IMG/VR virus record: IMGVR_UViG_3300021389_000023
Location: 1-60,676 of that record
DNA: 60,676 nt
DNA from: a virus
Lineage: Duplodnaviria > Caudoviricetes
Reading direction: 5' to 3' (one strand)
In this document: positions 25,152-50,754 of the stretch, one piece after another
How the letters are laid out: each line of letters opens with the position of its first letter
Position numbering within the stretch: the stretch's first letter is position 1
Made by a program: the position numbers and the translations under genes
Notes under the pieces: generated by a model
Database searches by the model: none
Told to the model about the DNA's origin: nothing
Seen by the model: only the letters and a program-made list of their open reading frames with translations

Positions 25152-26219
25152 ATGGAAATAAAAATAAAAGAGGTCGATGGTCCTGGACAGAAATCGATCC
25201 AAGAGGTCGAGGAAAAATTAATTGATCAACAGACCGAACAAGTAGAGGTCGAGAATACTACAGATGAAAAGACTGTAGAAGATAACACTCCTCAGTTTGG
25301 TGAGGAAGACGTTCTTTCATTTATTAAGAATAGATATGAAAAAGATATAAACTCTATAGACGAGTTGTTCTCTCAGCGTGAGCAGAATGATGAACTACCA
25401 GAGGATGTATCATCCTTCTTGAAGTATAAGAAGGAAACAGGTCGAGGTATTAATGACTTCATGAAGTTACAGATTGACTATGATGAACTAGACCCAGACC
25501 AAGTATTGCGTGACTATTATGCTGAAACCGAAAATGATTTAGACTCTGAGGATATTAATTACCTTATGAGTGAGAAATTTTCTTATGACGAAGATTTGGA
25601 TGATGAGTCGGAGATTAAGAATAAGCAGATCGCAAAGAAAAGAGAACTTGCAAAAGCTAAGAAGCATTTCAATGATCTAAAGGAGGCGTATAAGGTCCCT
25701 GTCGAGTCGACGGGTTCACCTGTCAACGAAGATGAAATGGAGTCCTACAAGGCTTACAAGGAATATATATCACAATCAGAAAGTATCCAAGAACAGAATC
25801 AGAAGCGTTCCGAATACTTCACCCAAAAGACTAACGATCTTTTCAACGATGATTTCAAAGGTTTTGAATTCGCAGTCGGTGATCAGAAGGTTATATTTAA
25901 TCCAGGTGACGTTAAGGAGGTAAAGAAGGTTCAGTCAGACGTAAATAACTTTATCTCTAAATTTTTAGATGATTCAGGTATGGTGAATGACCATGTTGGA
26001 TACCATAAGGCTTTAAGTGCTGCTTTGAATCCAGATAAACTTGCCACATACTTCTATGAGAAGGGTAAGTCTGACGCTGTTGATAATGTAGGTAAGACGA
26101 TAAAAAACATCGATATGGATGTTCGTTCTACACCTCAACAGATGACAACTAATGAAGGGTTTAAAATAAGAGCTGTAGAGTCTAATTCTAGTCGTGGTCT
26201 AAAGATTAAAAAAAGATAA
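25152..26219 (+). CDS. Putative capsid scaffolding protein
   Basis: Acidic and helical; lies between portal and major capsid genes. Confidence 0.75.
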   Translation: MEIKIKEVDGPGQKSIQEVEEKLIDQQTEQVEVENTTDEKTVEDNTPQFGEEDVLSFIKNRYEKDINSIDELFSQREQNDELPEDVSSFLKYKKETGRGINDFMKLQIDYDELDPDQVLRDYYAETENDLDSEDINYLMSEKFSYDEDLDDESEIKNKQIAKKRELAKAKKHFNDLKEAYKVPVESTGSPVNEDEMESYKAYKEYISQSESIQEQNQKRSEYFTQKTNDLFNDDFKGFEFAVGDQKVIFNPGDVKEVKKVQSDVNNFISKFLDDSGMVNDHVGYHKALSAALNPDKLATYFYEKGKSDAVDNVGKTIKNIDMDVRSTPQQMTTNEGFKIRAVESNSSRGLKIKKR

Positions 26220-33400: not shown

Positions 33401-35158
33401 CATAGGTATGCAGACATTACTTATAGTGGTGTGTACAATCAGGAGACAAACCTTAACAAGCTAAACGAGTTCAATCTAGGTTTAGTAAACTTCAAGACGC
33501 TAGAACAAAACTTTGGACCTATAGAGGTACTTCATGCAAGGATGAGTGATATACTCACCCTTCAGGAGGATAAGATATCTTATGTACTTGCTAATGGTAA
33601 GAATTTATTTTCAGATGCACAGGCAGGAGGAGCTATACTATCCACACCTGACGTACTTGGACAACAAATACCAAGGATTGAGGAGTATGGTATAAGTAAT
33701 AATCCTGAAAGTTTTTCTAACTATGGTTTCGATATATTCTTCACAGACTCAAAGAGAGGTGCTGTAATAAACTTAAGAGGTGCTGGTGGTACAGGTGACC
33801 AGCTTAATGTTATTTCTTCATTAGGAATGCGTTCTTGGTTTAGAGATAGGTTTATAGAGAACACTAATAAAATGCATTTAGGTGAGTATGATCCTTACAT
33901 GAATGAGTATGTTTTATCATTTACTGATAACTTAATAGATGTACAGGAAGATACTAGAGATTGTGGATTCAGTTTAGCACAACAGTCATCAAGCACTGTA
34001 GCTACATATAATATTAACCTAGATGATTTTACAGGAGATGTTGATATTGATTACGACATTACAGCTGGTAGTTTAGATATACTTGTCACGTATGACGGTA
34101 CAGATGTACTAGACCAGGTGTTAACTGGAACAGGTACATTAACATTCTCAAAGGATGAACTGAATGTAAACGAGTGTGTGCTAGTACTGACACCAACAAA
34201 TGCTACATATGAAATAAACTTTGGATGTGTTCAGGCACAGCAGCTTACTGTTGTAAGGATAGTTAATAATACAGATGAAATGGAAGACCTAAGTATTCAT
34301 CACGAATACCTATGGGAGGATAATGGATTTTCTAGTCAGGTTGTGACTGATTCCTTTACTTTTGGTGAAGGTCCTGTATCTTTATACGAGACATCTACTA
34401 ACTTTGAGTCTCAAGGTGGATCACCATCTGAGGGTGCAACTGTCACTATGAGATATAAGAAGCTGGAAGGTGATTTGGCTGAATGGGATATTGACAAGTT
34501 CAAGTACCTAGTCTCTGATGTTCTTTATCAGGAAGGAGACATAGCTACACTTATACCTTTACTAACAGAGGCTACGCCTATATTAAGTCCAGAGACAGAT
34601 GTGTATGAGGCTTCATTTACATACACTAACACTTCTAATAATCAGTATCTGTATTTGGTATGGGATTATATAGATCAGGTTTCAGGTACAACTGTTACAG
34701 CTACGTTTGATAATAGCTTAGGGAATGAAAGGTATTCTAGTCAGTTTGGACTGTCTCCGTTATCTGTAACAAGCCCAGGCACACCAACTAGATTTGGTTG
34801 GACATTTACAGGATGGTCTCCAACACTTCCAACAACTATAACTTCAGACACTACGTTTACATCACAATGGTCGGATAATGGTGTGACATACGATAGCGTT
34901 GTAGCTGTGGATGATTGTAATGATGCTGATGGAGTTGCTACTAGTATTGTAAGTGTAGATGAGACTGATGCAATAATAGTTGGTCAAAACTTGTACCAGA
35001 CTAGTGGAGGAGATATAGTACTTCTTTCTTCTGGAACGTATAGACTATCTAGTGGTCTTACAGACGGACAGAGCTATGTATTATCAAGTATAACAGTGTC
35101 AGACTATGTAATTGTTATAGGTACTAGTGGAGTTATAATTAACATTATTCAATGCTAA
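30449..35158 (+). CDS. Tail tubular protein B (stabilisation, nozzle-like)
   Basis: MNKSLDER..P.G.Y.DALN N-terminus; 1569 aa, beta-rich. Confidence 0.8.
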   Translation: MIINKNFIGSRMNKSLDERLIPAGDYTDALNIRVSSSEDGEALSAENTKGNELLATPRYDGKDVADAVCIGAYEDGENEKIYWFLTSDVVDIILSYNTKSDSITYHVVSETVLNFDERYLINGINLIDDLLFFTDNYNQPRRINVLSSYPEPIGGVDQITEDDISVIVKPPVDAPVLTLSKKAKKDNYMEEKFIRFSYRYKYKDGEYSALSEFSDLAFTPGQFRFDYGSYDMIGMRNNINSVNVDFFTGPSDVIGIDLCFKLSNTNIINVIEKYDKSEMGWGDNDNVSVEFTNQKIYTTLPESELLRLYDNVPKKAKAQTTIGNRIMYGNYYDGHNVDTIIDYSIELNTEDIGFNPLVESRDDGTDYTLETPNVTITNSRLDIDLTDIDMLEGGSLNIDFNIVHDSFGGDASFVDGSEVENNYQETFEFIFPRDFSDAQDLATDTDFLASIELTDPTGFPGTEDDGYSLSDLFFSNIVDHASGNWGISDGGITSSDQGFIVSHSGNTLSIQIPAVEFEDSTNPGTYAYEYFSNSSTTTSITEQGNRQSLHSNRDYEVGIVYLDEYNRASTALVSNYNTVYVEPQYSINKNSITTTINSLAPSWAKRYRLVMKPSKGNYETVYVQNYYFDTSEGAWWLKLEGDNQTKFKNGDSLIVKKASDGPTTDVIKTKVLDLETKEKHFIDENNEVPPSSGVYMKVRPSNFTIAESEVEDIDFDSLTKKNGVGQAYPTYIEDPDNPGTYIDYSITSGSEVRIFFNNHRAGSGSGCGSRYFKFDRTFIATRDYDSLYDFIISENVDFNNPTNNPGPESSDDTTPSADFDESIGTALVVLSTYSIISGGYNAGEGVTGIQFVRNNTPGTSNYSSFLTFTQAGSKCNGRNYWLTVHIQVFNAGELLVFETIPEENTNEIYYESFKSYPITEDRYHTGDVQDQTSSDSCIVNLDMYNCFAFGNGVESFKIEDGLAQPGFNLGARVTAVSEQDYKEAHRYADITYSGVYNQETNLNKLNEFNLGLVNFKTLEQNFGPIEVLHARMSDILTLQEDKISYVLANGKNLFSDAQAGGAILSTPDVLGQQIPRIEEYGISNNPESFSNYGFDIFFTDSKRGAVINLRGAGGTGDQLNVISSLGMRSWFRDRFIENTNKMHLGEYDPYMNEYVLSFTDNLIDVQEDTRDCGFSLAQQSSSTVATYNINLDDFTGDVDIDYDITAGSLDILVTYDGTDVLDQVLTGTGTLTFSKDELNVNECVLVLTPTNATYEINFGCVQAQQLTVVRIVNNTDEMEDLSIHHEYLWEDNGFSSQVVTDSFTFGEGPVSLYETSTNFESQGGSPSEGATVTMRYKKLEGDLAEWDIDKFKYLVSDVLYQEGDIATLIPLLTEATPILSPETDVYEASFTYTNTSNNQYLYLVWDYIDQVSGTTVTATFDNSLGNERYSSQFGLSPLSVTSPGTPTRFGWTFTGWSPTLPTTITSDTTFTSQWSDNGVTYDSVVAVDDCNDADGVATSIVSVDETDAIIVGQNLYQTSGGDIVLLSSGTYRLSSGLTDGQSYVLSSITVSDYVIVIGTSGVIINIIQC

Positions 35159-35163
35159 AATAG

Positions 35164-35919
35164 ATGGATAAAACATTAACATACAGTGAGTCAGCTAAGG
35201 GATGGACTTCGTTCTATTCCTTTGAGCCAGATATGATGATAGGGATGAATAACTACTTTTATTCATTTAAGGGTGGAAGGTTGTATAGACACAATACCAA
35301 TAATACTAGGAATAATTTTTATGGAACACAGTATGTGTCTACTATAACTGGTGTCATAAATGAAGAACCATCTACAGTTAAGACATTTAAGACTATATCT
35401 TTAGAGAGTACTAAACCATTTAACTGTACGGTTACAAGTGATTTAGGTTCTGGCTTTATAGATAATACTTGGTTTAGTCTAAAGGAGGGTGATTACTACG
35501 CACACATTAGAAGAAATGATTCTGATGGAGTTTTTGAGATGAGGTCTCTTCAAGGTATTGGGTCTAGTACGGATGTAGATTCATCTGACACCTCAGCTGT
35601 ATTGATAACGTTTGGGTTTAGGCTAGACAGTATGATATCTGTCGGTGATAAGATGCGTATGACTTCACTTACAGGCACAGACTTTATTGGAGACATAACT
35701 TCTGTTGATGGTAAAACCATAACTGTAGACACTACGGTTGGTGGTGGTTCTGTACCTACTGTTGGAGAGTATTTGATGTATGTGAAGAACAATGTAGCTG
35801 AGTCTTATGGAACTACAGGATATTATCTAGAATACCATTTAGAGCTACCTGTTAATTTATCTAACACATTTACCGAGATATTTGGTGTAGGATCCTCTTT
35901 ATTCAAGAGTTATCCATAA
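35164..35919 (+). CDS. Tail protein resembling a separated C-terminal part of tubular protein B
   Basis: TLTYSE..KGWTSFYSF.P...K.FKTI.LES...KEG.Y pattern. Confidence 0.65.
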   Translation: MDKTLTYSESAKGWTSFYSFEPDMMIGMNNYFYSFKGGRLYRHNTNNTRNNFYGTQYVSTITGVINEEPSTVKTFKTISLESTKPFNCTVTSDLGSGFIDNTWFSLKEGDYYAHIRRNDSDGVFEMRSLQGIGSSTDVDSSDTSAVLITFGFRLDSMISVGDKMRMTSLTGTDFIGDITSVDGKTITVDTTVGGGSVPTVGEYLMYVKNNVAESYGTTGYYLEYHLELPVNLSNTFTEIFGVGSSLFKSYP

Positions 35920-36837: not shown

Positions 36838-38433
36838 ATGGCTACATTCTACAAGTACAAAGAGAGAGACGACATAAGCAAGTCTATGATAGACTGGTCT
36901 GGGATAACTAAAAATATCTCTGACAACCTTATGAAAGAGAAGAGCAGAAGGGATGACCTTAAGCTTAAGATAGAAGAGGATCAGGTTCAAAGGCTGAATG
37001 CAATAGATGAGTATTCTAAGGGTCTAGACCCTACTATGAATCAGGCTATGATGAAGTACGCTCAAAACTATAAGGATTATCTTATGACTAGTCATAATTT
37101 ATTGAAGAATGGTCTAGTATCAGTTAATGATACCAAGATAAAAAAACAAGGTGCTTCGGATACATTTAAAGCCATCAATGACGTAACAAAAGTTTACAAT
37201 GAAAAAATTGGTGCGTTTATAGAAACTGGTGGATCTCTAAATGATTTTGTAGCTAAGAAAGTAGCAAGTGCTTTAGACATATCTAAGTCTGAGTTGATTA
37301 TTGATGACATGGGTCGTGGTAGTTTTCTCACTAGAGATGAGAGTGGTAATGAGATTGTTGTCCCTGCGACATCAATGAATACTATTCTAAATAAAAAGTA
37401 CGATAGGTTTAATACAACTGATGAGGTTGTTAACGTTGTTAAGGGTATATCTAATTGGACTTTAACAAGTAAAGGTGGATACAAGAGTGTGTCTGACTTT
37501 AGACAGAGGGGTGAGGATTTTTACAAGGAGACTCTAAAATCAAAAGTTAAGTCTATACTTAATAGTGATAAGAAAATATTAGAGGCTGCTGCCGACATGA
37601 TGAACATGGATGTAACCTATGACGAGAAGCTTGCTAAGGAAAATCCTGGACAATATATATTGGCTAAGAATGAGGGAGGCAAGATAGTATTCGATGTTGA
37701 AGGTATTAGAGAAACTGTAGAGGAGGGTCTTTACAATCAGATAGACGCAGCTATAGGAAGAACAGAGACAGAGAGATCAAGACCTGTAGGACCACGAACA
37801 CCTTCTGTGGAGAAAGCAGATAAAAACGTAGCATCTCTGATTGAAAACTTCGTCTCTAGGGGTGATTTTTCATCACTACAATCTGCTTTATCTGAAAAAG
37901 GATTTGTAGGATCTAAAGCTCCTGATAAGGATGGTGTTCTTAGATTAATAGATGCTAGTGGTAATGAGTATTTAATAAATACTAAAGGAAAGACTGCACA
38001 GCAGGTCGGTGAAGAAATAGCAGGTCCTCTAAAGGTGGTTAAATTCTTCAAGGATAGAGGTGTAAAAGGAAGTCTTAATGCATCAGTACTTGATCCAGCA
38101 AATAGTGGTAACTATGGTGTCTTTGTAAAAAGTCCTAAAGTTAGTTTTGATACTCAAACAAATAGAATCAGTATCACTAATAAATTAGAAGATTCTTTCG
38201 GGAATGCATTATCAGGTAATGAAAAGGGTGAAGAGATAGCAAATAGAATACAGAACTTAGTTGGTGGAGCTGCTAGTATATCATTTGTACCAGACACTAA
38301 TGATATTGAGGTTAATGGTGAAACAATAACAGACGGAGTAAAAAATTTAAGTCTTGTACTTAATGCTGTTGATAACTTAAATAAAACTCAAGGAGAAAAT
38401 CTTTTAAACGCATCAAATAGAAAACAAGAATAA
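36838..38433 (+). CDS. Internal virion (ejection) protein
   Basis: 531 aa, helical N-half; lies between the small ejection protein and the giant protein. Confidence 0.65.
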   Translation: MATFYKYKERDDISKSMIDWSGITKNISDNLMKEKSRRDDLKLKIEEDQVQRLNAIDEYSKGLDPTMNQAMMKYAQNYKDYLMTSHNLLKNGLVSVNDTKIKKQGASDTFKAINDVTKVYNEKIGAFIETGGSLNDFVAKKVASALDISKSELIIDDMGRGSFLTRDESGNEIVVPATSMNTILNKKYDRFNTTDEVVNVVKGISNWTLTSKGGYKSVSDFRQRGEDFYKETLKSKVKSILNSDKKILEAAADMMNMDVTYDEKLAKENPGQYILAKNEGGKIVFDVEGIRETVEEGLYNQIDAAIGRTETERSRPVGPRTPSVEKADKNVASLIENFVSRGDFSSLQSALSEKGFVGSKAPDKDGVLRLIDASGNEYLINTKGKTAQQVGEEIAGPLKVVKFFKDRGVKGSLNASVLDPANSGNYGVFVKSPKVSFDTQTNRISITNKLEDSFGNALSGNEKGEEIANRIQNLVGGAASISFVPDTNDIEVNGETITDGVKNLSLVLNAVDNLNKTQGENLLNASNRKQE

Positions 38434-38434
38434 G

Positions 38435-41400
38435 ATGGACGATAAATATATAAAAGACATATACGACAATCTTGGAGGAGAATCTGTATTTGGTAATTAC
38501 AATGATTATTATTCATTAATAACATCTGACGACAGTTATATAAAGGATGTTTACGATTCTAAAGGAGAGTCTGTATTTGGGTCATATGATGATTTCGTTT
38601 CTCTTGTAAAAAAAAAAGACGATTCTGTCGTTTCTACTTCTCAAGAGGGCGTTACGGAATCCACTACCAAGGAAGAAGAGCAAACTATCTTATCGGATGC
38701 TTCAGGCGTAACAGTTGATACACCTACTTTAGATTACTATAAACCGAACAAGGTGGATTTACAAGGTGTAAACGAATACCTAGTTAGTATGGGTTTAGAT
38801 GAAGTAATAACCCCAGAAAAAGCAGATACGTCTATAGGTGATAATAATCAATACGAAAATATTAGAAACTATTTTTCAAAAAGAAATGAACCTGTAGATC
38901 TTAATGATAGAGGTGTATTAGAATCTATAAACAAAGGACTTATTTCAGATGAAGATTTAATTTTGGCTGGATACAAAGATCCTGAAGTAATTTCTACAAT
39001 AAAAAGACAGCCTACTCAAGAAGAGATTTTTAACGCCAAACAAAAAATATATTCAAGAAAGACTAAAACTTCAGATGAATTAGATTTCGCCATATCTCAA
39101 TTCAAACTAGACAAGCCTTATATTTATGAAGAAAAGTCAAGTGAAGATCTTAGCTTTATAGAATATAATTATAATTCAGAGGATCTTTCTGAAGCAAATG
39201 TAAATATAAAAGACTTTGACGGATTCTTAAATGAAAAGGGTTTGAAGCAGGATTTTATAAATAAGGCTAAAACTTTTGAGTCTACATACGGGTCTATTTA
39301 TGACCTTGATTTAGCTAAGGAAATGGAATTATCTAGAATGCTAGATCTTTATATTTCTGAGCAATCAAAGAGAGATATTAAGCAACAAAAATTACAGTAC
39401 GAAAAAGAACAAGGTATAGATCCAGATTTAACAGATGACAAATATTCTTTTAAATTGTCAGATAAAAATGTAAGTATACCTAAAATAAATGAGTACTACA
39501 AAAAAAACTATCCTAAGCTAACAGAAAAGCTTTTAGAGACAGATTCAAAAAACAGGGATTTATATAAAAAATATTTAGAAGGTGATTTTGGTAATTTAGA
39601 TTTTTTAAAAGAGTTTGGAGATCAAGGTTACGAAGGTTTTGAAACAAGACTACAAAACTTATCCGCTAGTTTTACTGATTTAATAGGTTTTTCTAACACT
39701 GCTCAGGGTATTAGATTTCAAATTGAGCAAGAAAAACTAGTAGATGGTGACAACTTATCTTACTCTTATGTTGGTGGAAAAAAAGTTAATATTGATGGTA
39801 AGAACTATATCGTAGACAGCAATAATCAGGTTTATGATGCCGACCTAAAGATACGTGTAACAAATTATATTGATGAAGATTTAAGAAATAATATAATAGA
39901 TAAGTCTGTGCAATTCGGCACTGAAGATTTTAGTATTAGCTCTAAAGGTATGGCTTTTGAAACATCAAACATTGTGGGTGATATGGTTGTTCAAATAGGC
40001 TTACAAGGAAGTTTTACAAGCGGTGGTAAAATAGTTTCTGCTATTTCCAATACAGACAAGGTAAGACGTGTATTAGGTTATGTTCCATCAAGTTTTAAAC
40101 AACTAACAAAAGGTTTGACAATAGATAGGGGAATAGCATCATCTATATTAGCTCAATCAACCTTAGGAGCTTCTTCTGGATATGAAGACACATTATTGGC
40201 TGCAAAAGAGGCTGGATTAAGTGATAAGGAATCAGTAGAGTTAGCTAGAGATGCTTCAATTCAAATGGCAAAACTTTATGCTCTTACCGCTCCAATATCA
40301 CCACAAACAAAAGCCACAGAAGCTATATTTGGTAAGATTAAAAATGAAACAATAAAAGACGCTATAAAAGCTTATAAGAATATAGGTAAAGAAGGTTTTA
40401 TCGAGATTTTTGAAAAAGCAGGAAGAAAAGCTACAACTTACTTTGAGGAGGGATTAAAGGAGGCTGGTCAAGAAAATATTCAACAGTCAGGAGAAACTCT
40501 TGTTGTAAATAAAAGAACAAATGAATTAGCTGGTGTAAAGCTAAAGGAAGACGAAGTTACTGTTGACAGCTTTATAAATACATCTCTGTTATCATTAACT
40601 TCTGGTTTTTTAATGCCTTTTGGTGGGGATTTAATAGGTGGTGCTAGAAGTAAATCAAAAAAACTACTAGGTATCGACGGTGTTGATAGAATTAAGGCAT
40701 TGAGATTACTATCTGAAAACCAAGAAAAACTAGAAAAATTATTAAAGGTTCAACAAAATAAAGGTATATACTCTGAATCTCAAGTAGCTGAATTACTTGG
40801 AGATGTTAGAGTTTACAAGGACAACGTGTCTAAGATACCTTCAGATTTGAAATCAGATACAGCTTTAGATGTTATATCTGACTTGGAAAGCATACGAAAA
40901 TTAGAAAATAAGAAAAAAACACTTGACCCTTCTTTTCACGAAGATATAGATAAAGAGATATCGGAGATAAGAGAGTCGATTAAACAAAAAACAAAGGAAG
41001 ATGCCATTCAAGAGCAAGAAACAAGAGATATACCTGATGCTGAACGAGCCGAAGGTGTACAAGAAATGGAAGAAGAAGTACGGGAGCCTGCTGTCGAAGA
41101 AACGGAAGAAGTAACAGAACAGTTATCCCCTGAGGAGAAAGCAGAAACAGTAAGTGAATTAATAAATAGACCAGTTACACTTACAAAACTTGGAGGTTTT
41201 GATTTAGATACCCCACTAGAAGGTGATATGTATGTAGATGGTCAGCGTATCGTTGTTGAAGATGCTAATGGAAATATTACAGATATAGGTAACGTTGACA
41301 AGATATCAGACAAGACATTAGATGAAATGGGTATCGAGCAACAAATGCCTAGTGTCACTACTACAGATGATGGTAATATTGAATTTGAAGGTAAAATATA

Positions 41401-44400
41401 CAACCCAGAAAGTGCACGTATAAGAAGAGACAGTAGAGGTAACATAACTTCAGTCACTCTTGATCAGGTTGGTAAGCCAAGGTCAAAAACATTACGTGGA
41501 AAAAATGCAGAAGATGCTGCATATAATGTGTTATTAAGACAAGCACAACAATCAACAGAAATAGAACAATTACTAGAACAAGATGAAGAATTCCAAAACG
41601 AACTTAGACAAGCTGAAGAAGCTGCCCAAGGCAAAACAGATCAAGATACTGAGCAGGCTACTACAGAAGAAAGCATAGCGAGTCCAGAGGTTACAATAGA
41701 AGATGCTCCAGATGGGACATTCTTAAACATAGAGATGGTTGAAGGCAAGGATGGTCGTGAAATGACTCAGAAAGAGATATTAGACGCACTTCCAGTAGAA
41801 CCTTTAAATGTTGAGGTTAGCGGTAAAACTCTTGTCATACAAGTCCCTAGAAAACTTTCTGGATCGGAGATGATGAAACTTGCTAAGGATACAGAGCAAG
41901 ATGCTATACCTCAGGTGTCAGGTAAGAAGGGTGTGCTACACGCACAATCTAAAGAGAAGATGGACCTGTATGAGGGAAAGTTTATACCTAATTTATTTGT
42001 AAAACCAAAAAAAATAATAAAAGATGAAAAACCTAAAGCAGGAAACAGGCTCTTCAATAAGCCCCTCAAGGCAGTTAAGGCAATTGCGGACAAGTATTAC
42101 AAGAGAATTTTCAAAGGTGAAAGACCAAGGTTTGAAGGTGTCAAAAAGATAGACAAGGAATTCGCCAAAAGAATATCCGACGCATTTGAAGCCATGCAAG
42201 AGAATCCTAACGATCCTGAAGTAAAGGCTGCTTATGAAGCTCTAGCAAAGGAGACTATGGATCAGTATCAGGACTTCAAGGATGCAGGATACACTATAGA
42301 GGTTAATAACTCTGAGCCATACAAAAATGCTCAGGAGATGATTGATGATCTTAGGGATAATAAGAGGATGAAAATCTTCTCCACAGAGTCAGGATTTGGA
42401 GATACTCCTATAACAGAAAAACAAAGGAAAGAGAATCCACTTCTTAGAGACTCTGGTGTCAAGGATGTAAACGGAGAGACTCTTCTCGTTAATGACATAT
42501 TTAGAGCTGTACACGACTTCTACGGACACGCAGAGCTAGGTAATGGATTTGGCCCTGTTGGCGAAGAGAATGCGTGGAACGTTCATGCTAGAATGTTTTC
42601 TCCACTAGCACGTAGAGCTATGACTACTGAGACAAGAGGACAGAACTCTTATGTTAATTTCTCAGGGGTAAATGATGAAGCATTTAAGCTAAGGGATCAG
42701 GCCAGAAAACTAAGAAAGGAAGGAAAGGAGGCAGAGGCAGAGGCTTTAGTGGCTAAGGTCTATGAGATCATGAAGTTTGCCGATCAAAAGATTGGACTGC
42801 TTCCAGAAGAATTTTCATCTTTAGAGCAGGACGGTGTATCTAAACTTAGAGAGATGTTCAAGTCTACTAGCAAAAGGAAGCAGGTCGACAATGCATTGAA
42901 CGCACTGTCTAAGATAGCACCAGATGTTGAGGTGATACTGCATGAGAGTGAACAAGCGTATGCTGAAGCTACAGGAGAGACGGGTCGTAAACAAAAGACG
43001 GCAGGTACATATGATGAGACTATAGTTGACGGAAAGGTTAAGAAGGTTATACACATAAACCCTGACAAGGCTAACGCAAGGACTGTAGCTCACGAGGCAT
43101 TCCACGCTATATTCCTTAACATCGTAAAGAGTGATGCGGAGGCTCAGAGGCTTTCTGCTGCTATGATAAAGGCTGTATATAAGTCTGCACCTGCCGAACT
43201 AAAAAAACTTATAGATAACTTTGCTGAATCAAAGAATGCTGACGGAAGCAATAACTATGACTCAGCTGTACAGAATGAAGAGAAGCTTGCAGAGCTTATA
43301 GGATACCTTGCTACTGAATACGACTCATTACCAAAGCCAACTAAGAATGTTATAAAAAGATTCCTGGATAGACTTGCTAAGATGTTTGGTATGAAGCCAT
43401 TCACAGACAATGAGGTTATAGACGTACTAAACACTATAGCTGGTAAGGTGGCAAGAGGTGAGGCTGTAACACAGGAAGACTTATCTTCTATACAGTCTAA
43501 TGCTAAATATGTTTCTCAAGACGAAGCAAAACTTTGGGGTACAGTACCCGAAAGAAAACAAGTTAGAACAAAACCTGATCCAAAGAAAACCGTAAAGGCA
43601 TATAAAATGTTTAGGGTTAACAAATCTAAACCTGGTAAATTATTTCCATTATTTGTCAATGCAAATGATGAGGTATTAATGAATACTTGGCTTGATGCTG
43701 AAGTTGGAGAACTAACAAAAGATGGTAAAGTTAAATCTAAAATAGGAAATTTAGCTTACAGACCTGGATGGCATATGGGTGATTTACCTATAGCTACACA
43801 TATAGGTGATAAATATAATTTTAAAAAAGGAGAGGTAGATAAAAGTTTAAAAAAACCAACTGCAAGAAGTGCTAATCATGTATGGGCTGAAGTTGAAGTT
43901 GCCGCAGACGTTAATTGGCAAGAGGAAGCTAACAAGAGAGCAAAGAAAACAAAGGCTGGTAAAATAATACCAAGGACAGCACACATAACCGATCGATTAC
44001 CAGAAGACGGTTACTACAGATATAAAACAAATCCTAATATGACTGGCGAGTGGCTTATTGGTGGCTCAATAAAAGTTACTAAATTACTTACTGATGATGA
44101 GGTAAAAGCTATTAATGATGAGGCTGGTGTTGCAGACCTTCCAAGGGTTAAAGAATTAGATTTAAAATCAATAGGATTTGATAGAGATACTGATGTAGAT
44201 CTTAAGGTTACTCCTGCACCAACTGACTCAAAAGGAAATTTAAAAACGCCATCAAAAAAATCACAGAATAATCTTAAGAAGAGAAAACAAAATATAATAG
44301 ATGGAGTTAAGGATCAAGTTGTATCTGGAGAAATTGTTAGCACATCTCTACCAAATAAAGATGATGTTCATTCTAGTAAAGAATATGTAGTAGGTATATC

Positions 44401-47400
44401 TTCACTTGAAGAAATGGCTAGTACAGATAACAGGGCTAAGGATCAGTATATTAAAATTTCTAAAGAAGCAGCTTCATACGGAATATCTAAAACTAAAAAT
44501 GTAAATAATTTTGAAGATGCCAAGCAAGTTATATCTGAGTTTAAAGAAGTTGTAAAATCAAATTTAAAATGGCTTTATGACTCAGTAGATAAAGATGTTA
44601 GAGATATAAGTAAACTATGGTATGACGGAGCTAATAAAATATCTAATGATTTAGCAAATCAATATGGATATACAACAGAACAAGTTGCTGGAGTAATGGC
44701 TGTGCTAAGTCCTCAGATGGATTGGTTTAGAAATTTATCTTTAGGAGAAAGGGTTATTGATATATACAAAAACAATCAGGACTCACTGTTTGATGAGAAG
44801 ATGATAGAATTTGTTAATACAAAAACTACTGGTACTGGTAAAAATAAAAAACCTCTTTTTAAAAATAAAGAAGAAATAATATCAAGAGTAAAAAATAAAA
44901 AATTATCTGAACTAAGTTCTAAAGATCAATCATATTTTATAAGGGTTTATGATGAAGTTTATAATTCTAGAAACTACAACAACATAACTCCTAACGGAGA
45001 AATAAATGGACTTGTTAGAACTAAAAATGGTAACCCTGGTAAGGTTGGTTGGGGTGATTTTTCTACTATTGAGAAAGCTATATCTATACTAAATGATGGA
45101 TCAGTTAAAAATATTTCTACAAATCTAGGTAATCAACATAAGGTAAGAAATTTCTTTAATAACATATCAAATCCTAATGATAAAAATGCAGTTACGATTG
45201 ATACTCATGCTGTTGCAGCTGCATTATTAAAACCTTTATCAGGTAAATCAAAACAGGTTGCTTATAATTTTGGAGGATCATCATCTGTATCTACTGGTAT
45301 GACTGGAACATATCCTGTTTATGCGGATGCTTATAGAGAATTAGCTAATGAGCTGGGTATTCTTCCTAGAGAAGTTCAAAGTATAACATGGGAAGCAGGT
45401 AGAGGTTTATTTAAGGCTGCATTTAAATCTAACAAAAGCAATGAACAAAAAATAGATAATATTTGGAATAAATATAATTCTGGTGATATATCATTAAAAG
45501 AAGCTCAATCGAAAATAGAAAAACTAGCAGGAGGTATAAGTACACCTGTGTGGTATGAATATTTAGCTGATAATAATATTGAATCCTTAGACCAAAACTC
45601 AGCAGCTTTAGATCAATCTAATTTAGATGAAGAACCAATCACTAGATCTCGTAAGCAGGTTAACTTAGCTCCAAATGGAAAGCCTAGTAATCTAAATCAA
45701 GAGCAGTACGATATAGTACGTACACCTAAATTTAAGAATTGGTTTGGTGACTGGGAAAATGACCCTGAAAATTCTAGTAAGGTTGTCGATGAGAACGGTG
45801 AGCCGCTTGTTGTCTATCATGGTGGGCCAATAATAAAAGGCGACTCTTTTAGAAAAGGGTATGCAGACGGTAATTTAAGAGGAGATAAGGGAATATATTT
45901 TACAGAAAATAAAGAATTTGCTAAATACTTTGCTCATCAAAATGAACTTGTCGAAAGAGATAAAAGAAATTTTGAATACGATGATATTCCTGAGAGCGAG
46001 TTAGAGACAGGAGAGCCATTTAATGAAAAGTATTTTAAATATTCTGAAATCTATCCTGTGTTTCTTAACTTAAAGAAACCTACAATATCAGAAACGGGAA
46101 ATGCTAATTTGATACCTCGTCTGTACGAGGAAGGAGCAGATGGGTTTATAACAAAATCAACATCAGATTTTGGTTATGACGCAGGACAATACATAGCCTT
46201 CGAGCCTAACCAAATCAAACTCGCAGACGGAAGCAACAAGACCTTCGACCCAGACGCACCTTCTATTCGTAAGCAAGCACCAGGGAGACCAAGTATCGGA
46301 GAGATAGTTAGAAAGGGTAAACAGAACAATATTTCTGACGCTGATATAAGACAGTTCGCAAAGGAAGAAGGTTATACAGATGCAGAGATAACTGCCGCTA
46401 TGAATATTCCTTCTTCGGAAGAAATAGTTGAACGATCTGAGAAGGCTATAAAAGATAAGTTGAAGAAAAGAGATTTTAAAGGTACTATGAGGTATCTTAG
46501 AAAGAAAATTTTTGACAGACAGACATATATAAAAGACGTTCTTAAGGGTGTTGGAAATAAAAAATCAGTAAGAGCTCATAATAGGTTAGTAACAAAGGCT
46601 GGAGCTAAAGGTTTCGCTAACTATAGATTTAAGAAGGCAGAAAAAGAAATATTTAGCAATCTATCTGAAAAAGAAAAAAAACAGCTTGACGCTCTTATAT
46701 ATGCAAGAAGAATAGTCGCTATAAATGAAAATAGAAAGAAAAGAGGTGAGGATGAATATGTAGGAGCAGGTGGATATAATTATGATAAAGCTAAGTCAGA
46801 GGTTGAGGCATTTTCTAATGACAAGCTATCCAAAAGAGCTGATAAGTATTTTGAAGTATTTAATCAAAACCTAAAGAGGTTACGTGACTCAGGTAGAATA
46901 TCAGAAGATGTATATATAAGCCTAAGGGACATAGAATATTCACCTATAAAAACTATTAAGTATATTATAGGAGACAATCACAGCACTTCAGAAATGAATA
47001 ATCTAGCTAACTCAATTGGTGTCAGTCAAAAAGATATAATGGCACTTAGTGACGAGAATATTAATGATTTAATTACTGACTCACGTTGGCTTCTTATGAT
47101 GAATATAAGTGCTGTTGAAAATAGAGCTGCCACAAATGAAGTATTAAATTTGTTTTATGATGCAATAGAATCAGCAGATGCAGATGGTTTAGCAGCTATA
47201 AGTGACAACATTCTTGACAACCCAATTATTGGAAATAAAGAATCAGGAGCACCTAAATTTAAGTATGATGACGTTAAAGTTCCTGTAGGATATAGAACAG
47301 TATCATTCTTTAAGGATGGTGTTGAACACAAGATGGTGATGAGGGAAGAGTATGCTAGACAGTTGTTGGATATCAAAGTTGACGATAAGACATTGAAGGC

Positions 47401-49201
47401 TCTTAGGAAATTTACTTTTGGTAATGTTCTAAGGTTCTTTGCTACATCAGGAAATCCATTATTCATAGTAGGTAACACTGCGGTTGACTTTCAGAATATA
47501 CTATTCCTTGGAGATACCTATTCTAAATTTAAGTTAGTTGGAGGTGTTGAGCTTGGTTTTGATTTTGTAAACAATTCTTTGAAGAAAATATTTAACACTG
47601 GTAGTTACCAAAAAACCTATGAGGAGTTTATGACGTATGGTGGTGGTATGGATTTTCTATCTGTGGATGGTATAAAGGCAATTAAAGGTATCAGTAGGTT
47701 TAACAAGCCGAAGACTTTACTTCAAAAAGGAATGGTAAAGTGGGGTGAAGGATTATCCTACCTTGGGGAGACATCTGAGATGGCTTTTAGGTTGGCTGTA
47801 TATGAAAAAACAAGGTCAAAACTAATAAACCAATATAAAAAAGATAATAAGAAAGAACCTACAGGTCAGGATCTTGAGGATATACTTTATGAATCAGCTA
47901 GGGAATCTAGGGAGACCATTGATTTTAGTCAAGGAGGAGATCTTGTTAAATCAGCAGACTATGTACTACCATACCTGAATGCATCAGTACAAGGTGCTAG
48001 AAGGGCTGTTGATTACGCTTCAAAAAATCCAGGTGGTTTTGCATCTAGTATGATTCAGTATGCTGTTATGTCTGGAGGTCTTCTGGCTAGCTCTCTATAT
48101 ATGTTATCATCAGCATTCGATGATGAGGATGATGAAGAGGAGAAGGCTAAGAAGATGAAAGACGCATGGAGTAGTGTTAGTGATTACGAAAAATCAGCAT
48201 ACCACATAATATTTACAGGTGATGTTGATGAGGATGGGGAGTATGAATACTATAGGTTTAAAAAACTACCTGTTATAGGGTTACTGTCTACAACTGTTGA
48301 GGAGTCTATAATAAGTACGTACTTAAAATCAAAAGGTGTGGACTATGAATTTAATACAGAAAGCGTATCTAAGGCATTAGACAAAACATCTCCTATAGGT
48401 ATAACAGATATTGGTTCGAGAAACCCTGTAATATCTGGTGTACTTAGTTATGTGTACAATAAAGATACATTTACAGGAGAAGAAATTTTTAGAGGACCTA
48501 GAGGAAAGATAATACTTCCAGAGGCAGAGGGTATTTTAGATAATAAAGTAGAGCAGATATATAAAGACATAGCTCCTTTACTTGGAATGTCACCTAAAAG
48601 AACTCAGGTAATGGTTGAGAAGGTTATAACTAACGAAAGAACAAACCCATTGGTAGGAGTAATGTACGGTGGTTATAACGGTGTGTTTTCAAAGGAAACA
48701 ACTGTGGGTGAGGAGATGAAGGAGACAATGAATGGTGTATTAAAATCATTCAGCGGTAAGATAAAAAGATCAACCAACTCAAAGCTACAGGAATACAAAA
48801 AGATGGATGAGGTTAAAAAGGTTGAGGCTGAGATGGAAACTGAAATATACATTAAAGAGCAGAAGGTGTATAATGCTATAAAAGAAAAGAGAAAGAATAA
48901 GCAAGATATAGATGCTGGTTTCTTGAGGGATATTGTAAAGGAAAATTTTGAAAGAAAAGATTGGAAGAAGTATGGAAGAAAATTCTCAACATACGCAAAA
49001 AACGCAAACATAGATAGATCTATATTAGATTTAATCTACGAGGATACTCCAGAGGTTCAAGCTTATAAGATATTTTCAAGATATGGAGATGCTCTAGATG
49101 CTGATGAGAAGGAAGAACTTAAAAATGCTATAAAATCAGCCAGAAAAAATCTAAATAAGAAGGCATTAAGTATTTACAATAAGGAATACCGCAAAAAATA
49201 G
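38435..49201 (+). CDS. Giant polyvalent (ejection) protein: HD..GH domain, zincin peptidase (HEAFH), YRPGWH domain, HhH-glycosylase-like domain, ART-PolyVal-like ADP-ribosyltransferase, LPD38-like C-terminus
   Basis: 3588 aa; motifs FRAVHDFYGH, AHEAFH...EEKLAE, LAYRPGWH, HKVRNF..N...VTIDTH, FKNWFGDW...VVDENGEPLVVYHG...GIYFT, DFSQGG...PYLNASVQG. Confidence 0.85.
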   Translation: MDDKYIKDIYDNLGGESVFGNYNDYYSLITSDDSYIKDVYDSKGESVFGSYDDFVSLVKKKDDSVVSTSQEGVTESTTKEEEQTILSDASGVTVDTPTLDYYKPNKVDLQGVNEYLVSMGLDEVITPEKADTSIGDNNQYENIRNYFSKRNEPVDLNDRGVLESINKGLISDEDLILAGYKDPEVISTIKRQPTQEEIFNAKQKIYSRKTKTSDELDFAISQFKLDKPYIYEEKSSEDLSFIEYNYNSEDLSEANVNIKDFDGFLNEKGLKQDFINKAKTFESTYGSIYDLDLAKEMELSRMLDLYISEQSKRDIKQQKLQYEKEQGIDPDLTDDKYSFKLSDKNVSIPKINEYYKKNYPKLTEKLLETDSKNRDLYKKYLEGDFGNLDFLKEFGDQGYEGFETRLQNLSASFTDLIGFSNTAQGIRFQIEQEKLVDGDNLSYSYVGGKKVNIDGKNYIVDSNNQVYDADLKIRVTNYIDEDLRNNIIDKSVQFGTEDFSISSKGMAFETSNIVGDMVVQIGLQGSFTSGGKIVSAISNTDKVRRVLGYVPSSFKQLTKGLTIDRGIASSILAQSTLGASSGYEDTLLAAKEAGLSDKESVELARDASIQMAKLYALTAPISPQTKATEAIFGKIKNETIKDAIKAYKNIGKEGFIEIFEKAGRKATTYFEEGLKEAGQENIQQSGETLVVNKRTNELAGVKLKEDEVTVDSFINTSLLSLTSGFLMPFGGDLIGGARSKSKKLLGIDGVDRIKALRLLSENQEKLEKLLKVQQNKGIYSESQVAELLGDVRVYKDNVSKIPSDLKSDTALDVISDLESIRKLENKKKTLDPSFHEDIDKEISEIRESIKQKTKEDAIQEQETRDIPDAERAEGVQEMEEEVREPAVEETEEVTEQLSPEEKAETVSELINRPVTLTKLGGFDLDTPLEGDMYVDGQRIVVEDANGNITDIGNVDKISDKTLDEMGIEQQMPSVTTTDDGNIEFEGKIYNPESARIRRDSRGNITSVTLDQVGKPRSKTLRGKNAEDAAYNVLLRQAQQSTEIEQLLEQDEEFQNELRQAEEAAQGKTDQDTEQATTEESIASPEVTIEDAPDGTFLNIEMVEGKDGREMTQKEILDALPVEPLNVEVSGKTLVIQVPRKLSGSEMMKLAKDTEQDAIPQVSGKKGVLHAQSKEKMDLYEGKFIPNLFVKPKKIIKDEKPKAGNRLFNKPLKAVKAIADKYYKRIFKGERPRFEGVKKIDKEFAKRISDAFEAMQENPNDPEVKAAYEALAKETMDQYQDFKDAGYTIEVNNSEPYKNAQEMIDDLRDNKRMKIFSTESGFGDTPITEKQRKENPLLRDSGVKDVNGETLLVNDIFRAVHDFYGHAELGNGFGPVGEENAWNVHARMFSPLARRAMTTETRGQNSYVNFSGVNDEAFKLRDQARKLRKEGKEAEAEALVAKVYEIMKFADQKIGLLPEEFSSLEQDGVSKLREMFKSTSKRKQVDNALNALSKIAPDVEVILHESEQAYAEATGETGRKQKTAGTYDETIVDGKVKKVIHINPDKANARTVAHEAFHAIFLNIVKSDAEAQRLSAAMIKAVYKSAPAELKKLIDNFAESKNADGSNNYDSAVQNEEKLAELIGYLATEYDSLPKPTKNVIKRFLDRLAKMFGMKPFTDNEVIDVLNTIAGKVARGEAVTQEDLSSIQSNAKYVSQDEAKLWGTVPERKQVRTKPDPKKTVKAYKMFRVNKSKPGKLFPLFVNANDEVLMNTWLDAEVGELTKDGKVKSKIGNLAYRPGWHMGDLPIATHIGDKYNFKKGEVDKSLKKPTARSANHVWAEVEVAADVNWQEEANKRAKKTKAGKIIPRTAHITDRLPEDGYYRYKTNPNMTGEWLIGGSIKVTKLLTDDEVKAINDEAGVADLPRVKELDLKSIGFDRDTDVDLKVTPAPTDSKGNLKTPSKKSQNNLKKRKQNIIDGVKDQVVSGEIVSTSLPNKDDVHSSKEYVVGISSLEEMASTDNRAKDQYIKISKEAASYGISKTKNVNNFEDAKQVISEFKEVVKSNLKWLYDSVDKDVRDISKLWYDGANKISNDLANQYGYTTEQVAGVMAVLSPQMDWFRNLSLGERVIDIYKNNQDSLFDEKMIEFVNTKTTGTGKNKKPLFKNKEEIISRVKNKKLSELSSKDQSYFIRVYDEVYNSRNYNNITPNGEINGLVRTKNGNPGKVGWGDFSTIEKAISILNDGSVKNISTNLGNQHKVRNFFNNISNPNDKNAVTIDTHAVAAALLKPLSGKSKQVAYNFGGSSSVSTGMTGTYPVYADAYRELANELGILPREVQSITWEAGRGLFKAAFKSNKSNEQKIDNIWNKYNSGDISLKEAQSKIEKLAGGISTPVWYEYLADNNIESLDQNSAALDQSNLDEEPITRSRKQVNLAPNGKPSNLNQEQYDIVRTPKFKNWFGDWENDPENSSKVVDENGEPLVVYHGGPIIKGDSFRKGYADGNLRGDKGIYFTENKEFAKYFAHQNELVERDKRNFEYDDIPESELETGEPFNEKYFKYSEIYPVFLNLKKPTISETGNANLIPRLYEEGADGFITKSTSDFGYDAGQYIAFEPNQIKLADGSNKTFDPDAPSIRKQAPGRPSIGEIVRKGKQNNISDADIRQFAKEEGYTDAEITAAMNIPSSEEIVERSEKAIKDKLKKRDFKGTMRYLRKKIFDRQTYIKDVLKGVGNKKSVRAHNRLVTKAGAKGFANYRFKKAEKEIFSNLSEKEKKQLDALIYARRIVAINENRKKRGEDEYVGAGGYNYDKAKSEVEAFSNDKLSKRADKYFEVFNQNLKRLRDSGRISEDVYISLRDIEYSPIKTIKYIIGDNHSTSEMNNLANSIGVSQKDIMALSDENINDLITDSRWLLMMNISAVENRAATNEVLNLFYDAIESADADGLAAISDNILDNPIIGNKESGAPKFKYDDVKVPVGYRTVSFFKDGVEHKMVMREEYARQLLDIKVDDKTLKALRKFTFGNVLRFFATSGNPLFIVGNTAVDFQNILFLGDTYSKFKLVGGVELGFDFVNNSLKKIFNTGSYQKTYEEFMTYGGGMDFLSVDGIKAIKGISRFNKPKTLLQKGMVKWGEGLSYLGETSEMAFRLAVYEKTRSKLINQYKKDNKKEPTGQDLEDILYESARESRETIDFSQGGDLVKSADYVLPYLNASVQGARRAVDYASKNPGGFASSMIQYAVMSGGLLASSLYMLSSAFDDEDDEEEKAKKMKDAWSSVSDYEKSAYHIIFTGDVDEDGEYEYYRFKKLPVIGLLSTTVEESIISTYLKSKGVDYEFNTESVSKALDKTSPIGITDIGSRNPVISGVLSYVYNKDTFTGEEIFRGPRGKIILPEAEGILDNKVEQIYKDIAPLLGMSPKRTQVMVEKVITNERTNPLVGVMYGGYNGVFSKETTVGEEMKETMNGVLKSFSGKIKRSTNSKLQEYKKMDEVKKVEAEMETEIYIKEQKVYNAIKEKRKNKQDIDAGFLRDIVKENFERKDWKKYGRKFSTYAKNANIDRSILDLIYEDTPEVQAYKIFSRYGDALDADEKEELKNAIKSARKNLNKKALSIYNKEYRKK
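41001..41114 (+). CDS. Nested +1-frame gene, 37 aa: MPFKSKKQEIYLMLNEPKVYKKWKKKYGSLLSKKRKK
   Basis: Hand-translated; A-rich leader; matches the MPFKS..Q..Y...NEP...KW...YG small phage protein pattern as recalled. Confidence 0.7.
   Translation: MPFKSKKQEIYLMLNEPKVYKKWKKKYGSLLSKKRKK
41583..41678 (+). CDS. Nested +1-frame gene, 31 aa: MKNSKTNLDKLKKLPKAKQIKILSRLLQKKA
   Basis: Hand-translated; spans an acidic linker of the giant protein; A-rich leader. Confidence 0.45.
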   Translation: MKNSKTNLDKLKKLPKAKQIKILSRLLQKKA

Positions 49202-49639: not shown

Positions 49640-50032
49640 TTAATCATCTAAATATATTTCTAGAGCAGCCAACGCCCTCCATGCAACCTTGCCTAAGTGT
49701 AGCATTCCATCGTCGTCCAATGGATGATGAGAGTGATCAATCAGGTGTCTGACCAATGCATCTTCGTGATCAAAGCTCTTCTCTCTATCCCAGTGCAAGG
49801 GCTTATCAGGATGATGCTGGTCATTACCCAACTTACTTACCCTTGACACATATTTTAATGCCCTAGGAAAGTATTTAAGAACACCTGTATACACAGGCAT
49901 ACTCTTCCTGTCAACTTTCTCTCTAACATATGCAGCCTCTGTTCCACTTATAATATCGTAATTATTGTATCCAGTGTCACTGACCACCCATCTATTTTCG
50001 TCCTCTTCTAAAAGTTCTTTTCCTGTACTCAT
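49640..50032 (-). CDS. dATP/dGTP diphosphohydrolase-like protein (DUF5664)
   Basis: FPRAL..V..VS..G....W...DAL.RHL...HL...AWRALA pattern. Confidence 0.75.
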   Translation of the reverse strand: MSTGKELLEEDENRWVVSDTGYNNYDIISGTEAAYVREKVDRKSMPVYTGVLKYFPRALKYVSRVSKLGNDQHHPDKPLHWDREKSFDHEDALVRHLIDHSHHPLDDDGMLHLGKVAWRALAALEIYLDD

Positions 50033-50754
50033 AATTCCATTTTTACGTTAAACGCTGTATGACCTCCAATAATCACACCAACACCTATAGCCTCTTTCTT
50101 TCCGCCCTGCATATATCCCATAGCATAAGAAGAACTATCTATACCACAGCCTACAGCCAATGCAAATATAGCCCTGGTCTTACCGAACATCCACTCGCAA
50201 TACATATCCGTGTGATAGTGTCCAGAGACAGTAGAAACCATATCCCTCTTTACAGCTGTCCTTGGTTTACCACTCTTGTCTCCGTGAACATATCGAACGC
50301 CATCTATGTACACGTCAGTAACAAAACGCCAATTAGGTGTATTCAAAACCTCGCCAAACTCTTTAATCCACATACTAGGTATGTTAGATGTCTGAGCCTT
50401 TCTTATTATTATCCTGTCATGGTTTCCTAGTGTAACATCTGCATCTGGAAACGCCTTGTACCACTTAGCAAGCTTATCTATAGCCTTATTCAACTCATAC
50501 TTACCACCCATACCATCTGCCGATGACTCGTGATAGCTAGAGTAATGGTTGTCAATTATGTCTCCTATAAAAACAACCCTGTTGCAGTTATTCTCTGCAT
50601 AGGTTTTTTTACAAAATTCTAAATATCCATCCAAACAAAAGGGCTCATGCAGGTCACCAATACAAAGAACCCTGTTCTCTACCTTAGTAATCCTATCATA
50701 AGCCTTGCGTATGTTTCCTTTTAGTCTAGGTCTGTAGTCTTTTTTAGATTTCAT
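50029..50754 (-). CDS. Calcineurin-like metallophosphoesterase
   Basis: GDLH, GDIID, GNHD, HG and GHYH motifs. Confidence 0.9.
   Translation of the reverse strand: MKSKKDYRPRLKGNIRKAYDRITKVENRVLCIGDLHEPFCLDGYLEFCKKTYAENNCNRVVFIGDIIDNHYSSYHESSADGMGGKYELNKAIDKLAKWYKAFPDADVTLGNHDRIIIRKAQTSNIPSMWIKEFGEVLNTPNWRFVTDVYIDGVRYVHGDKSGKPRTAVKRDMVSTVSGHYHTDMYCEWMFGKTRAIFALAVGCGIDSSSYAMGYMQGGKKEAIGVGVIIGGHTAFNVKMEL

Follow-up and report, generated by a model that had tools for sequence, protein, structure and literature searches.

What marks off the domains of a giant phage virion protein from one another, and whether they are ever set free, is the question raised by gene P0001 of IMGVR_UViG_3300021389_000023, a complete virus record (Duplodnaviria; Caudoviricetes) of 60,676 bases (CheckV 100%) that is here called the window. 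The 3588-residue product carries the tripeptide RKQ six times, and the sequence-only reading of this DNA had proposed that RKQ delimits its domains, that an embedded peptidase or another protease cuts at RKQ to release injected effectors, and that domains are exchanged as RKQ-bounded cassettes. That interpretation is upheld in part. Comparison with relatives supports RKQ as a real, selected junction motif rather than a chance repeat, and makes the case far stronger than P0001 does by itself. The motif belongs to a broader pattern, R-x-Q, and the joints so marked may be recognition sites of a zincin-like metallopeptidase (MPTase) that lies within the same chain.

Modules of the giant protein

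The gene and the modules of its product are as follows.

38435..49201, + strand: giant virion cargo or polyvalent protein gene P0001, 3588 aa in an intact frame, just after crAss-type muzzle genes and two smaller open reading frames (ORFs)
42215..42667, + strand: phrog_3170 module of unassigned function, aa 1261-1411 (PHROGs E 7e-17)
42884..43504, + strand: zincin-like MPTase module, aa 1484-1690 (524 library matches at E ≤ 1e-3; AlphaFold2 (AF2) model; weak fold matches)
43586..44179, + strand: phrog_30118 module (YRPGWH), aa 1718-1915 (PHROGs E 3.5e-66)
44291..45634, + strand: DUF7178-containing module, aa 1953-2400 (Pfam PF23802, 95.7 bits against a cut-off of 27)
45665..46246, + strand: ADP-ribosyltransferase (ART) module (ART-PolyVal, Pfam PF18760) with a conserved N-terminal extension, aa 2411-2604
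46277..49198, + strand: conserved C-terminal module, aa 2615-3588 (weak LPD38 match, one hydrophobic helix, acidic stretch; spanned by about 19 homologs)

In the manner of polyvalent proteins, a single chain unites a zincin, ART-PolyVal, DUF7178, phrog_30118, phrog_3170 and a weak LPD38 match, and its gene has the placement of a late or virion gene, on the same strand after the terminase, portal, capsid, structural and muzzle genes. This sequence evidence is best explained if P0001 is a cargo polyprotein of the virion and the phage a podophage whose tail parts are of crAss type. No RNA polymerase domain is detected in it with Pfam or PHROGs, and a PDB sequence search with the whole protein gives no match at E ≤ 1. 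The ART-PolyVal match reaches 49.6 bits against a cut-off of 31.2 and covers profile positions 1-140 of 140, with an envelope of aa 2452-2604; the extension that precedes it matches a crAss-like gene labelled 'RNA-polymerase subunit'. The DUF7178 module is common to 93 of 119 homologs, and the ART module is present in 38 of them. The region after aa 1950, which the sequence-only reading took for an HhH-like domain, is DUF7178, and no HhH domain is recognised there. Free-standing viral proteins of 173-228 aa correspond to the phrog_30118 module, which lacks a Pfam family.

Two side observations concern these modules. The nearest named clusters to the phrog_30118 module are ADP-ribosyltransferases (Arr, PARP, Tox-ART-HYD1), at a score of 0.81 that lies below the tool's evidence level; if the resemblance is real, P0001 would have two ART-like modules. 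The C-terminal module contains, at about 47900-48300 of the window (aa ~3160-3290), a hydrophobic helix-like stretch (MIQYAVMSGGLLASSLYMLSSAF) followed by the acidic run DDEDDEEE, a combination reminiscent of the membrane-inserting ejection proteins of other podophages.

RKQ copies and module borders

The six RKQ copies are distributed over the middle of the protein.

42875..42883, + strand: RKQ site 1, aa 1481-1483, AGGAAGCAG, at the N-terminal edge of the peptidase
42986..42994, + strand: RKQ site 2, aa 1518-1520, CGTAAACAA, in a loop inside the peptidase
43553..43561, + strand: RKQ site 3, aa 1707-1709, AGAAAACAA, in the low-confidence linker from the peptidase to the phrog_30118 module
44282..44290, + strand: RKQ site 4, aa 1950-1952, AGAAAACAA, in a predicted helix close to where the DUF7178 module begins
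45650..45658, + strand: RKQ site 5, aa 2406-2408, CGTAAGCAG, in the linker before the ART module
46268..46276, + strand: RKQ site 6, aa 2612-2614, CGTAAGCAA, directly after the ART module

A recount confirms the six positions, their codons and the NRKQE end of the upstream ORF as they had been given, including the claim that the codons differ between copies, since five codon combinations are used for the six. RKQ is the most over-represented tripeptide of P0001 (Poisson 1.9e-5), with six copies against 0.53 expected, a number that none of 5000 shuffles reaches. All six fall within aa 1471-2625, a stretch of 1155 aa in which 0.13 would be expected, leaving the N-terminal 1470 aa and the C-terminal 963 aa with zero copies. 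The other 51 ORFs of the window (13,425 aa) hold one RKQ against 1.35 expected.

The proposal that RKQ delimits the domains stands for sites 1481, 1707, 2406 and 2612, which lie at module borders defined by homology breakpoints, and fails for site 1950, which lies in a helix about 25 aa inside a module. The breakpoints derive from 311 high-scoring segment pairs (HSPs) in a BLAST comparison of P0001 with 119 homologs, whose ends cluster at aa 1481-1482, 1686-1688, 1703-1716, 1919-1925, 2400, 2411-2412 and 2612. Around site 1707, homology stops at aa 1686-1688 and resumes at 1703-1716; around site 2406, 20 HSPs end at aa 2400 and 25 resume at 2411-2412; and at site 2612, 14 HSPs end at that very residue. 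In homologs P0070, P0069, P0088 and P0085 the C-terminal module starts at the RKQ of each protein, and the distance from site 2406 to the conserved LAPN varies among homologs. An AF2 model of aa 1440-2639 (mean pLDDT, the predicted local confidence, 59) has low-confidence linkers at model positions 1-39, 248-272 and 477-485, and such linkers also back the borders at 1481 and 1707. Those at 2406 and 2612 are backed by homology and by the Pfam ART envelope, and the structure lends them no support because the ART part of the model is unfolded.

Relatives and lineage variants

A search with aa 1400-2700 returns 766 proteins at E ≤ 1e-3 among 2465 scored candidates, and the best 120 of the 766 were examined. 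Pooled over these relatives, RKQ occurs 171 times against 59 expected, a count drawn from related rows and thus not independent. The comparison of domain borders in homologs that the sequence-only reading had called for comes out in favour of its claim: once identical contexts are collapsed, 45 of 143 distinct-context RKQ sites in the 120 proteins lie within 12 aa of a homology-breakpoint hotspot, where 6.7 would be expected (binomial 4e-25). Control tripeptides behave otherwise, with 2/38 for KRQ, 3/104 for RKE, 5/94 for KKQ and 2/46 for RQK at hotspots. Nine of eleven control tripeptides are within a factor of two of expectation; RKS stands at 8/82 against 3.9, and QRK is raised at 9/62, which we put down to its overlap with the frequent context QRKQ. 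RKQ precedes at least 15 different module types with variable spacing to the module core, usually with P, S or T before it and K, I, V, L or A after it.

The exchange of RKQ-bounded cassettes is likewise borne out. Homolog P0070 corresponds to the window protein minus aa 1710-2614, its peptidase being joined RKQ-to-RKQ to the C-terminal module through a single copy of the motif, and the shared blocks of P0033 and P0003 end in RKQ linkers. Block comparison of close relatives, P0070 among them, reveals modules gained or lost exactly between two RKQ copies.

Across relatives, the core of the junction is R-x-Q by sequence comparison, and its middle residue (K, G, E/D, S, Q or R) is specific to the lineage. 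The residue switches together at several unrelated joints of one protein, homologous and non-homologous alike, being G in P0011/12, E in P0013 and S in P0022/23/81. Variant copies include RGQ three times in P0011, REQ in P0013, RSQ four times in P0022/23, SRQR in P0038 and, five or six times each, G-R-[E/D]-Q-K in P0057/59/67. At the position of site 1950 as well, homologs show the variant of their own lineage (RKQ, RGQ, REQ or RSQ), and site 1518 is RKQ in the nearest clade only. Within-protein agreement of the middle residue amounts to 257 against 203 ± 13.8 in shuffles (z 3.9; reached in 1 of 1000 shuffles), and the control patterns Q-x-R, K-x-Q, R-x-E, R-x-N and K-x-N give z between -1.7 and 1.2. 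Such coordinated change would be expected if one shared partner recognised the unrelated joints and its specificity had shifted.

The pattern extends to 142 further representatives found through the MPTase alone, in which RKQ (180 against 54.1 expected), RQQ (62 against 20.9), RFQ (38 against 19.8) and REQ (74 against 45.5) are all in excess, and 38 of which carry at least three copies of one R-x-Q variant. The variants RQQ, REQ and RRQ appear in independent representatives in junction-like contexts.

With the block borders of close relatives lying in or near RKQ linkers, R-x-Q might be taken for a by-product of recombination, such as a scar at short conserved DNA stretches, or for chance. We regard this as very improbable. 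A scar at conserved DNA fits poorly with five codon combinations for six copies, with a middle residue that changes in concert within lineages, and with block borders that in some cases lie about 20 aa upstream of RKQ rather than at it, and chance is excluded by the enrichment in P0001, the hotspot excess and the MPTase-retrieved set.

A separate arrangement is seen in distant relatives P0062, P0040, P0089, P0106 and P0068, which have three to five tandem ART modules and use, instead of R-x-Q, the junction ...NPDIRF-(A/D/E)-x-GG...LLAPN.

The embedded zincin

The peptidase module between sites 1481 and 1707 carries the candidate catalytic residues.

43091..43105, + strand: HEAFH zinc-binding and catalytic motif, aa 1553-1557, with H, E and H invariant
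43277..43282, + strand: E1615-E1616, candidate third zinc ligand in a downstream helix (QNEEKLAE), invariant

The family to which this module belongs has 524 library members at E ≤ 1e-3, nearly all of them in proteins of 2000-3700 aa. All 141 representatives spanning these positions keep H1553, E1554, H1557, E1615 and E1616, as does the 25-row alignment A4; earlier alignments had H1553, E1554 and E1616 invariant and H1557 at least 90% kept. This conservation indicates that the peptidase has kept its catalytic residues intact and that they are strongly constrained. In an AF2 model of the module (mean pLDDT 68), HEAFH is placed in helix 78-94 and E1615/E1616 in helix 144-161, and the order of secondary structures fits a gluzincin-type zincin. 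The best Pfam peptidase match is Peptidase_M13 (E 0.079, 13 bits against a cut-off of 24.5).

The motif follows the peptidase. Homologs with the MPTase hold 120 RKQ copies against 29.9 expected, a fourfold excess, and those without it hold 45 against 28.7 (1.6 times), mostly inside domains, in helices or conserved domain motifs; by this sequence comparison, the R-x-Q motif goes with this zincin family. Co-folding of the MPTase with the linker aa 2388-2427 and zinc gives an ipSAE interface score of 0.43 against 0.00 for the best of three controls, which the tool's own verdict terms 'weak support'; at least 66% of contacts are shared between runs, and partner pLDDT is at least 43. In the benchmark of the docking mark, 116 of 157 solved complexes and 2 of 215 mismatched pairs reach it, and passes at a score of 0.60 or below comprise only 18 of the 157 solved complexes together with both passing mismatches.

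Proposed cleavage and its alternatives

These observations can be joined in a single mechanism. The conserved N- and C-terminal thirds of P0001 presumably bring the protein into the capsid, and the middle third would be a string of exchangeable modules, namely the zincin, phrog_30118, DUF7178 and the ADP-ribosyltransferase. The R-x-Q joints would be recognition sites of the embedded HExxH+E zincin, which, acting in cis or on other copies, would sever the chain once it had been packaged or had entered the host by ejection. Cutting would free the peptidase, phrog_30118, DUF7178, the ADP-ribosyltransferase and a C-terminal piece of about 970 aa from an N-terminal piece of about 1480 aa, and the phrog_3170 module would stay attached to those N-terminal 1480 aa because no RKQ precedes it. 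We infer the cut itself, its enzyme, its bond and its timing from the observed motif, its placement, conservation and variants, its link with the peptidase and the intact residues of the latter. That the embedded zincin cuts P0001 at R-x-Q after packaging or ejection, releasing the modules, has in our judgement an even chance of being right. A wider claim is made tentatively, at somewhat less than an even chance: several hundred giant podophage virion proteins, mostly of uncultured phages, would use a co-evolving pair of dedicated zincin and Arg-x-Gln code that yields separate effectors after injection. As part of the same joint reading, and held just as tentatively, such proteins would be the DNA-phage counterpart of RNA-virus polyproteins, into which new modules are plugged by flanking them with the R-x-Q of the lineage.

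A number of observations weigh against cleavage by the embedded zincin. Site 1950 lies in a confident helix (model 502-520), past the real linker at aa 1916-1924, and site 1518 lies in a surface loop inside the peptidase in the AF2 models, where it may be a chance copy or a site of autolysis or self-inactivation. The Q of site 1481 doubles as the opening residue of QV(D/E)NA, a helix conserved in the peptidase family. Over the peptidase N-terminal border, Q is aligned in 59 of 138 representatives and R-x-Q in 6 of 138, and several representatives carry PRKQ[V/I] 6-7 residues upstream of the border. Because Q is common there as part of the domain's own helix, site 1481 is explained in part by the peptidase domain itself. 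A further module border, at aa ~1196 (breakpoints 1185-1234), has no RKQ, and the ART region of the AF2 model (model 943-1200) is unfolded at pLDDT 22-27, probably as a result of badly aligned full-length mosaic rows. The homolog in Flavobacterium phage elemoE has no RKQ and carries RFQ, RQQ and RMQ, and deep branches of the peptidase family are also without RKQ. Foldseek with the peptidase model returns nothing at E ≤ 1e-3, and VIA-align gives weak matches to solved zincins at Z 4.2-5.6, below the tool's trustworthy level (Certhrax N-domain 5.6, PPEP-2 5.2, lethal factor 5.0 and 4.7, PPEP-3 4.2, with SPRTN also among the best). The link between motif and peptidase appears confounded by shared descent and is no proof of a cis enzyme, because the peptidase tree probably mirrors the descent of the phages.

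The literature points the same way. In Iyer et al. 2017 (J Bacteriol, PMC5512222), the N4 virion RNA polymerase (vRNAP), the best-studied giant virion protein with a zincin, is described as packaged and active at full length, and ArdC and TraC1 as transferred uncut; the presence of a zincin in such a protein does not alone imply self-cutting, because these proteins are delivered whole. A 2026 structure paper on N4 (PMC13434306) mentions, by term search, the HExxH domain and no proteolysis, and the literature searched contains no measured cleavage for any relative.

It is accordingly conceivable, though rather unlikely, that R-x-Q is a non-proteolytic linear motif and that the protein stays whole like N4 vRNAP, the motif serving as an intramolecular docking site, in ordered unfolding and threading through the tail, as an Arg target of the protein's own ART, or as a module cap. 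Besides the uncut relatives, the helical position of site 1950 and the place of the Q of site 1481 in the conserved peptidase helix are compatible with this, and the coordinated variants require a shared recognition partner that need not be a protease. However, the sites stand at the ends of flexible linkers beside very different modules, the modules between them occur elsewhere as free-standing proteins, and the invariant catalytic residues of the peptidase imply that it cuts something. An ART target in particular is at odds with an ART module confined to 38 of 119 homologs, the motif being much wider.

Cleavage at the R-x-Q joints by a different enzyme, either a host protease or an unrecognised phage protease, with the zincin acting as an effector on host targets, we consider distinctly unlikely. 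Effector roles of MPTases are listed in Iyer 2017 (PMC5512222), the association of motif and peptidase is inseparable from shared descent, and many window ORFs lack a family match and could hide a protease. Yet in this complete genome no protease other than the embedded zincin is recognised by Pfam on 52 ORFs or PHROGs on 26 ORFs, scans that a protease without a family model could escape. Apart from the coincidental tail upstream, no further virion protein carries RKQ, unlike the substrates of head-maturation proteases, and the differences in variant among close relatives are more in keeping with a specificity carried by the phage than with one set by the host. A head-maturation protease was rejected as the cutting enzyme, none being recognised, and ORF 25152-26219, situated between portal and capsid, looks like an acidic scaffold protein.

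If cleavage by the zincin is correct, it would explain how several unrelated enzymes enter the capsid on one targeting signal and are freed in the host, it would offer a way to set the limits of effector modules in the thousands of giant phage proteins that lack annotation, and it could yield a set of proteases with sequence specificity. If the joints are not cut, a conserved and coordinately evolving linker motif still needs explanation. In either case one peptidase family is defined alongside the sites, with its 524 library matches and its catalytic residues in 141 of 141 representatives, and the natural middle-residue variants (K, G, E/D, S, Q, R) are usable for matching enzymes to sites.

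The upstream protein

The ORF that precedes P0001 also ends in the motif and had been counted with the set.

36838..38433, + strand: upstream 531-aa ORF (P0002) ending NRKQE, judged to lie outside the motif set

Its inclusion is not upheld. In its family (39 homologs, P0264-P0302, and the window's own protein), otherwise divergent C-termini end in a conserved (N)LNAS-x-RK(K/N/E) tail, and R-x-Q occurs in the last 12 aa of only 1 of 40 members, that of the window itself. Of two close loci of this ORF, one ends RKQ and the other RKTTD, and none of the 120 giants is similar to the upstream protein. NRKQE was rejected as a member of the code, the different tail LNAS-x-RK explaining it, and from these sequences the NRKQE end is most likely a coincidence. 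The tail of the family could be a docking or packaging tag.

Genome context

The phage is uncultured and of marine type, and its genome is podophage-like. PHROGs and Pfam identify GroEL/GroES, an amidase, a holin, the terminase, a P22-type portal, the capsid, virion proteins and crAss-type muzzle domains, and the muzzle genes are followed by a 288-aa ORF, the 531-aa ORF (P0002) and then the 3588-aa ORF (P0001). Among named phages, those of the Flavobacterium genus Elemovirus are the closest relatives, and their homolog of P0001 is annotated 'structural protein'. Pfam places crAss_MUZ_C on ORF 35164-35919 with 52.9 bits against a cut-off of 27, and crAss_MUZ below its cut-off (19.3 against 27).

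The muzzle protein is seemingly split into two adjoining ORFs, at 30449-35158 and 35164-35919 of the window. The first (1569 aa) covers phrog_14478 positions 2-697, and the second (251 aa) covers positions 1123-1286 and also matches crAss_MUZ_C and the last residues of crAss_MUZ. GroEL (514 aa, Cpn60) adjoins GroES (85 aa, Cpn10) at 6276-8074, and a 189-aa ORF at 19635-20204 gives a second match to a PHROG annotated as the co-chaperonin GroES; the phage-borne chaperonin may be connected with the 3588-aa multidomain protein. On the minus strand, where the leftward replication module begins, an ORF with a dATP/dGTP diphosphohydrolase N-terminal domain (49640-50754) has a calcineurin-like phosphoesterase as its neighbour, and by their predicted functions the two may manipulate the nucleotide pool.

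Comparison with known systems

Head-maturation substrates, such as the internal proteins and Alt that are cut by T4 gp21 and the substrates of giant-phage proteases, are packaged, carry a short, repeated and lineage-specific cut motif, and are trimmed after assembly. P0001 resembles them in its short, repeated, lineage-specific motif. It differs in that no gene of a prohead protease family is recognised in the window, the capsid, portal and scaffold are without RKQ, and the candidate enzyme lies inside the substrate.

Among zincins, the LF-like (lethal factor) and PPEP (M34-type) enzymes share with the embedded peptidase an HExxH motif and a later Glu, and they are its best, though weak, structural matches. 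Sequence similarity is absent (phmmer against PDB, 0 matches at E ≤ 1), and membership is not claimed; the fold searches neither assign the peptidase to a known family nor speak against one. The peptidase of P0001 falls below every Pfam peptidase cut-off.

Coliphage N4 gp50 is comparable as an HExxH-bearing protein of about 3500 aa, which travels in the capsid of a podovirus and enters the host by ejection. It differs in being packaged and acting at full length, no processing being reported in the N4 literature searched, and in its RNA polymerase domain, which is undetected in P0001 by Pfam or PHROGs.

The cargo of Crassvirales offers a parallel in gene order. According to Bayfield et al. 2023 (PMC10172136), PhicrAss001 has portal, capsid, ring and hub, muzzle and cargo in this order, with gp45-gp50 as the cargo region, and matches to crAss_MUZ and crAss_MUZ_C lie just upstream of P0001 in the window. 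By term search, that paper mentions neither cleavage nor a protease. The window phage differs from the crassviruses of about 100 kb in being a 60.7-kb relative of Flavobacterium Elemovirus.

The closest likeness in composition is to the phage-type polyvalent proteins of Iyer et al. 2017 (J Bacteriol, PMC5512222), described as having a zincin-like MPTase hub for which self-processing is predicted. P0001 shares with them a giant late-gene protein, a zincin, an ART (Pfam ART-PolyVal) and uncharacterised modules. A junction motif of the present kind is not described in the titles, abstract openings and passages that made up the literature searched, and by term search Iyer 2017 names no cleavage motif. 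Self-processing of polyvalent proteins has been predicted since 2017 without defined sites; in P0001 and its relatives, by comparison, candidate R-x-Q sites stand at the module borders and vary by lineage, which supplies the exact candidate residues.

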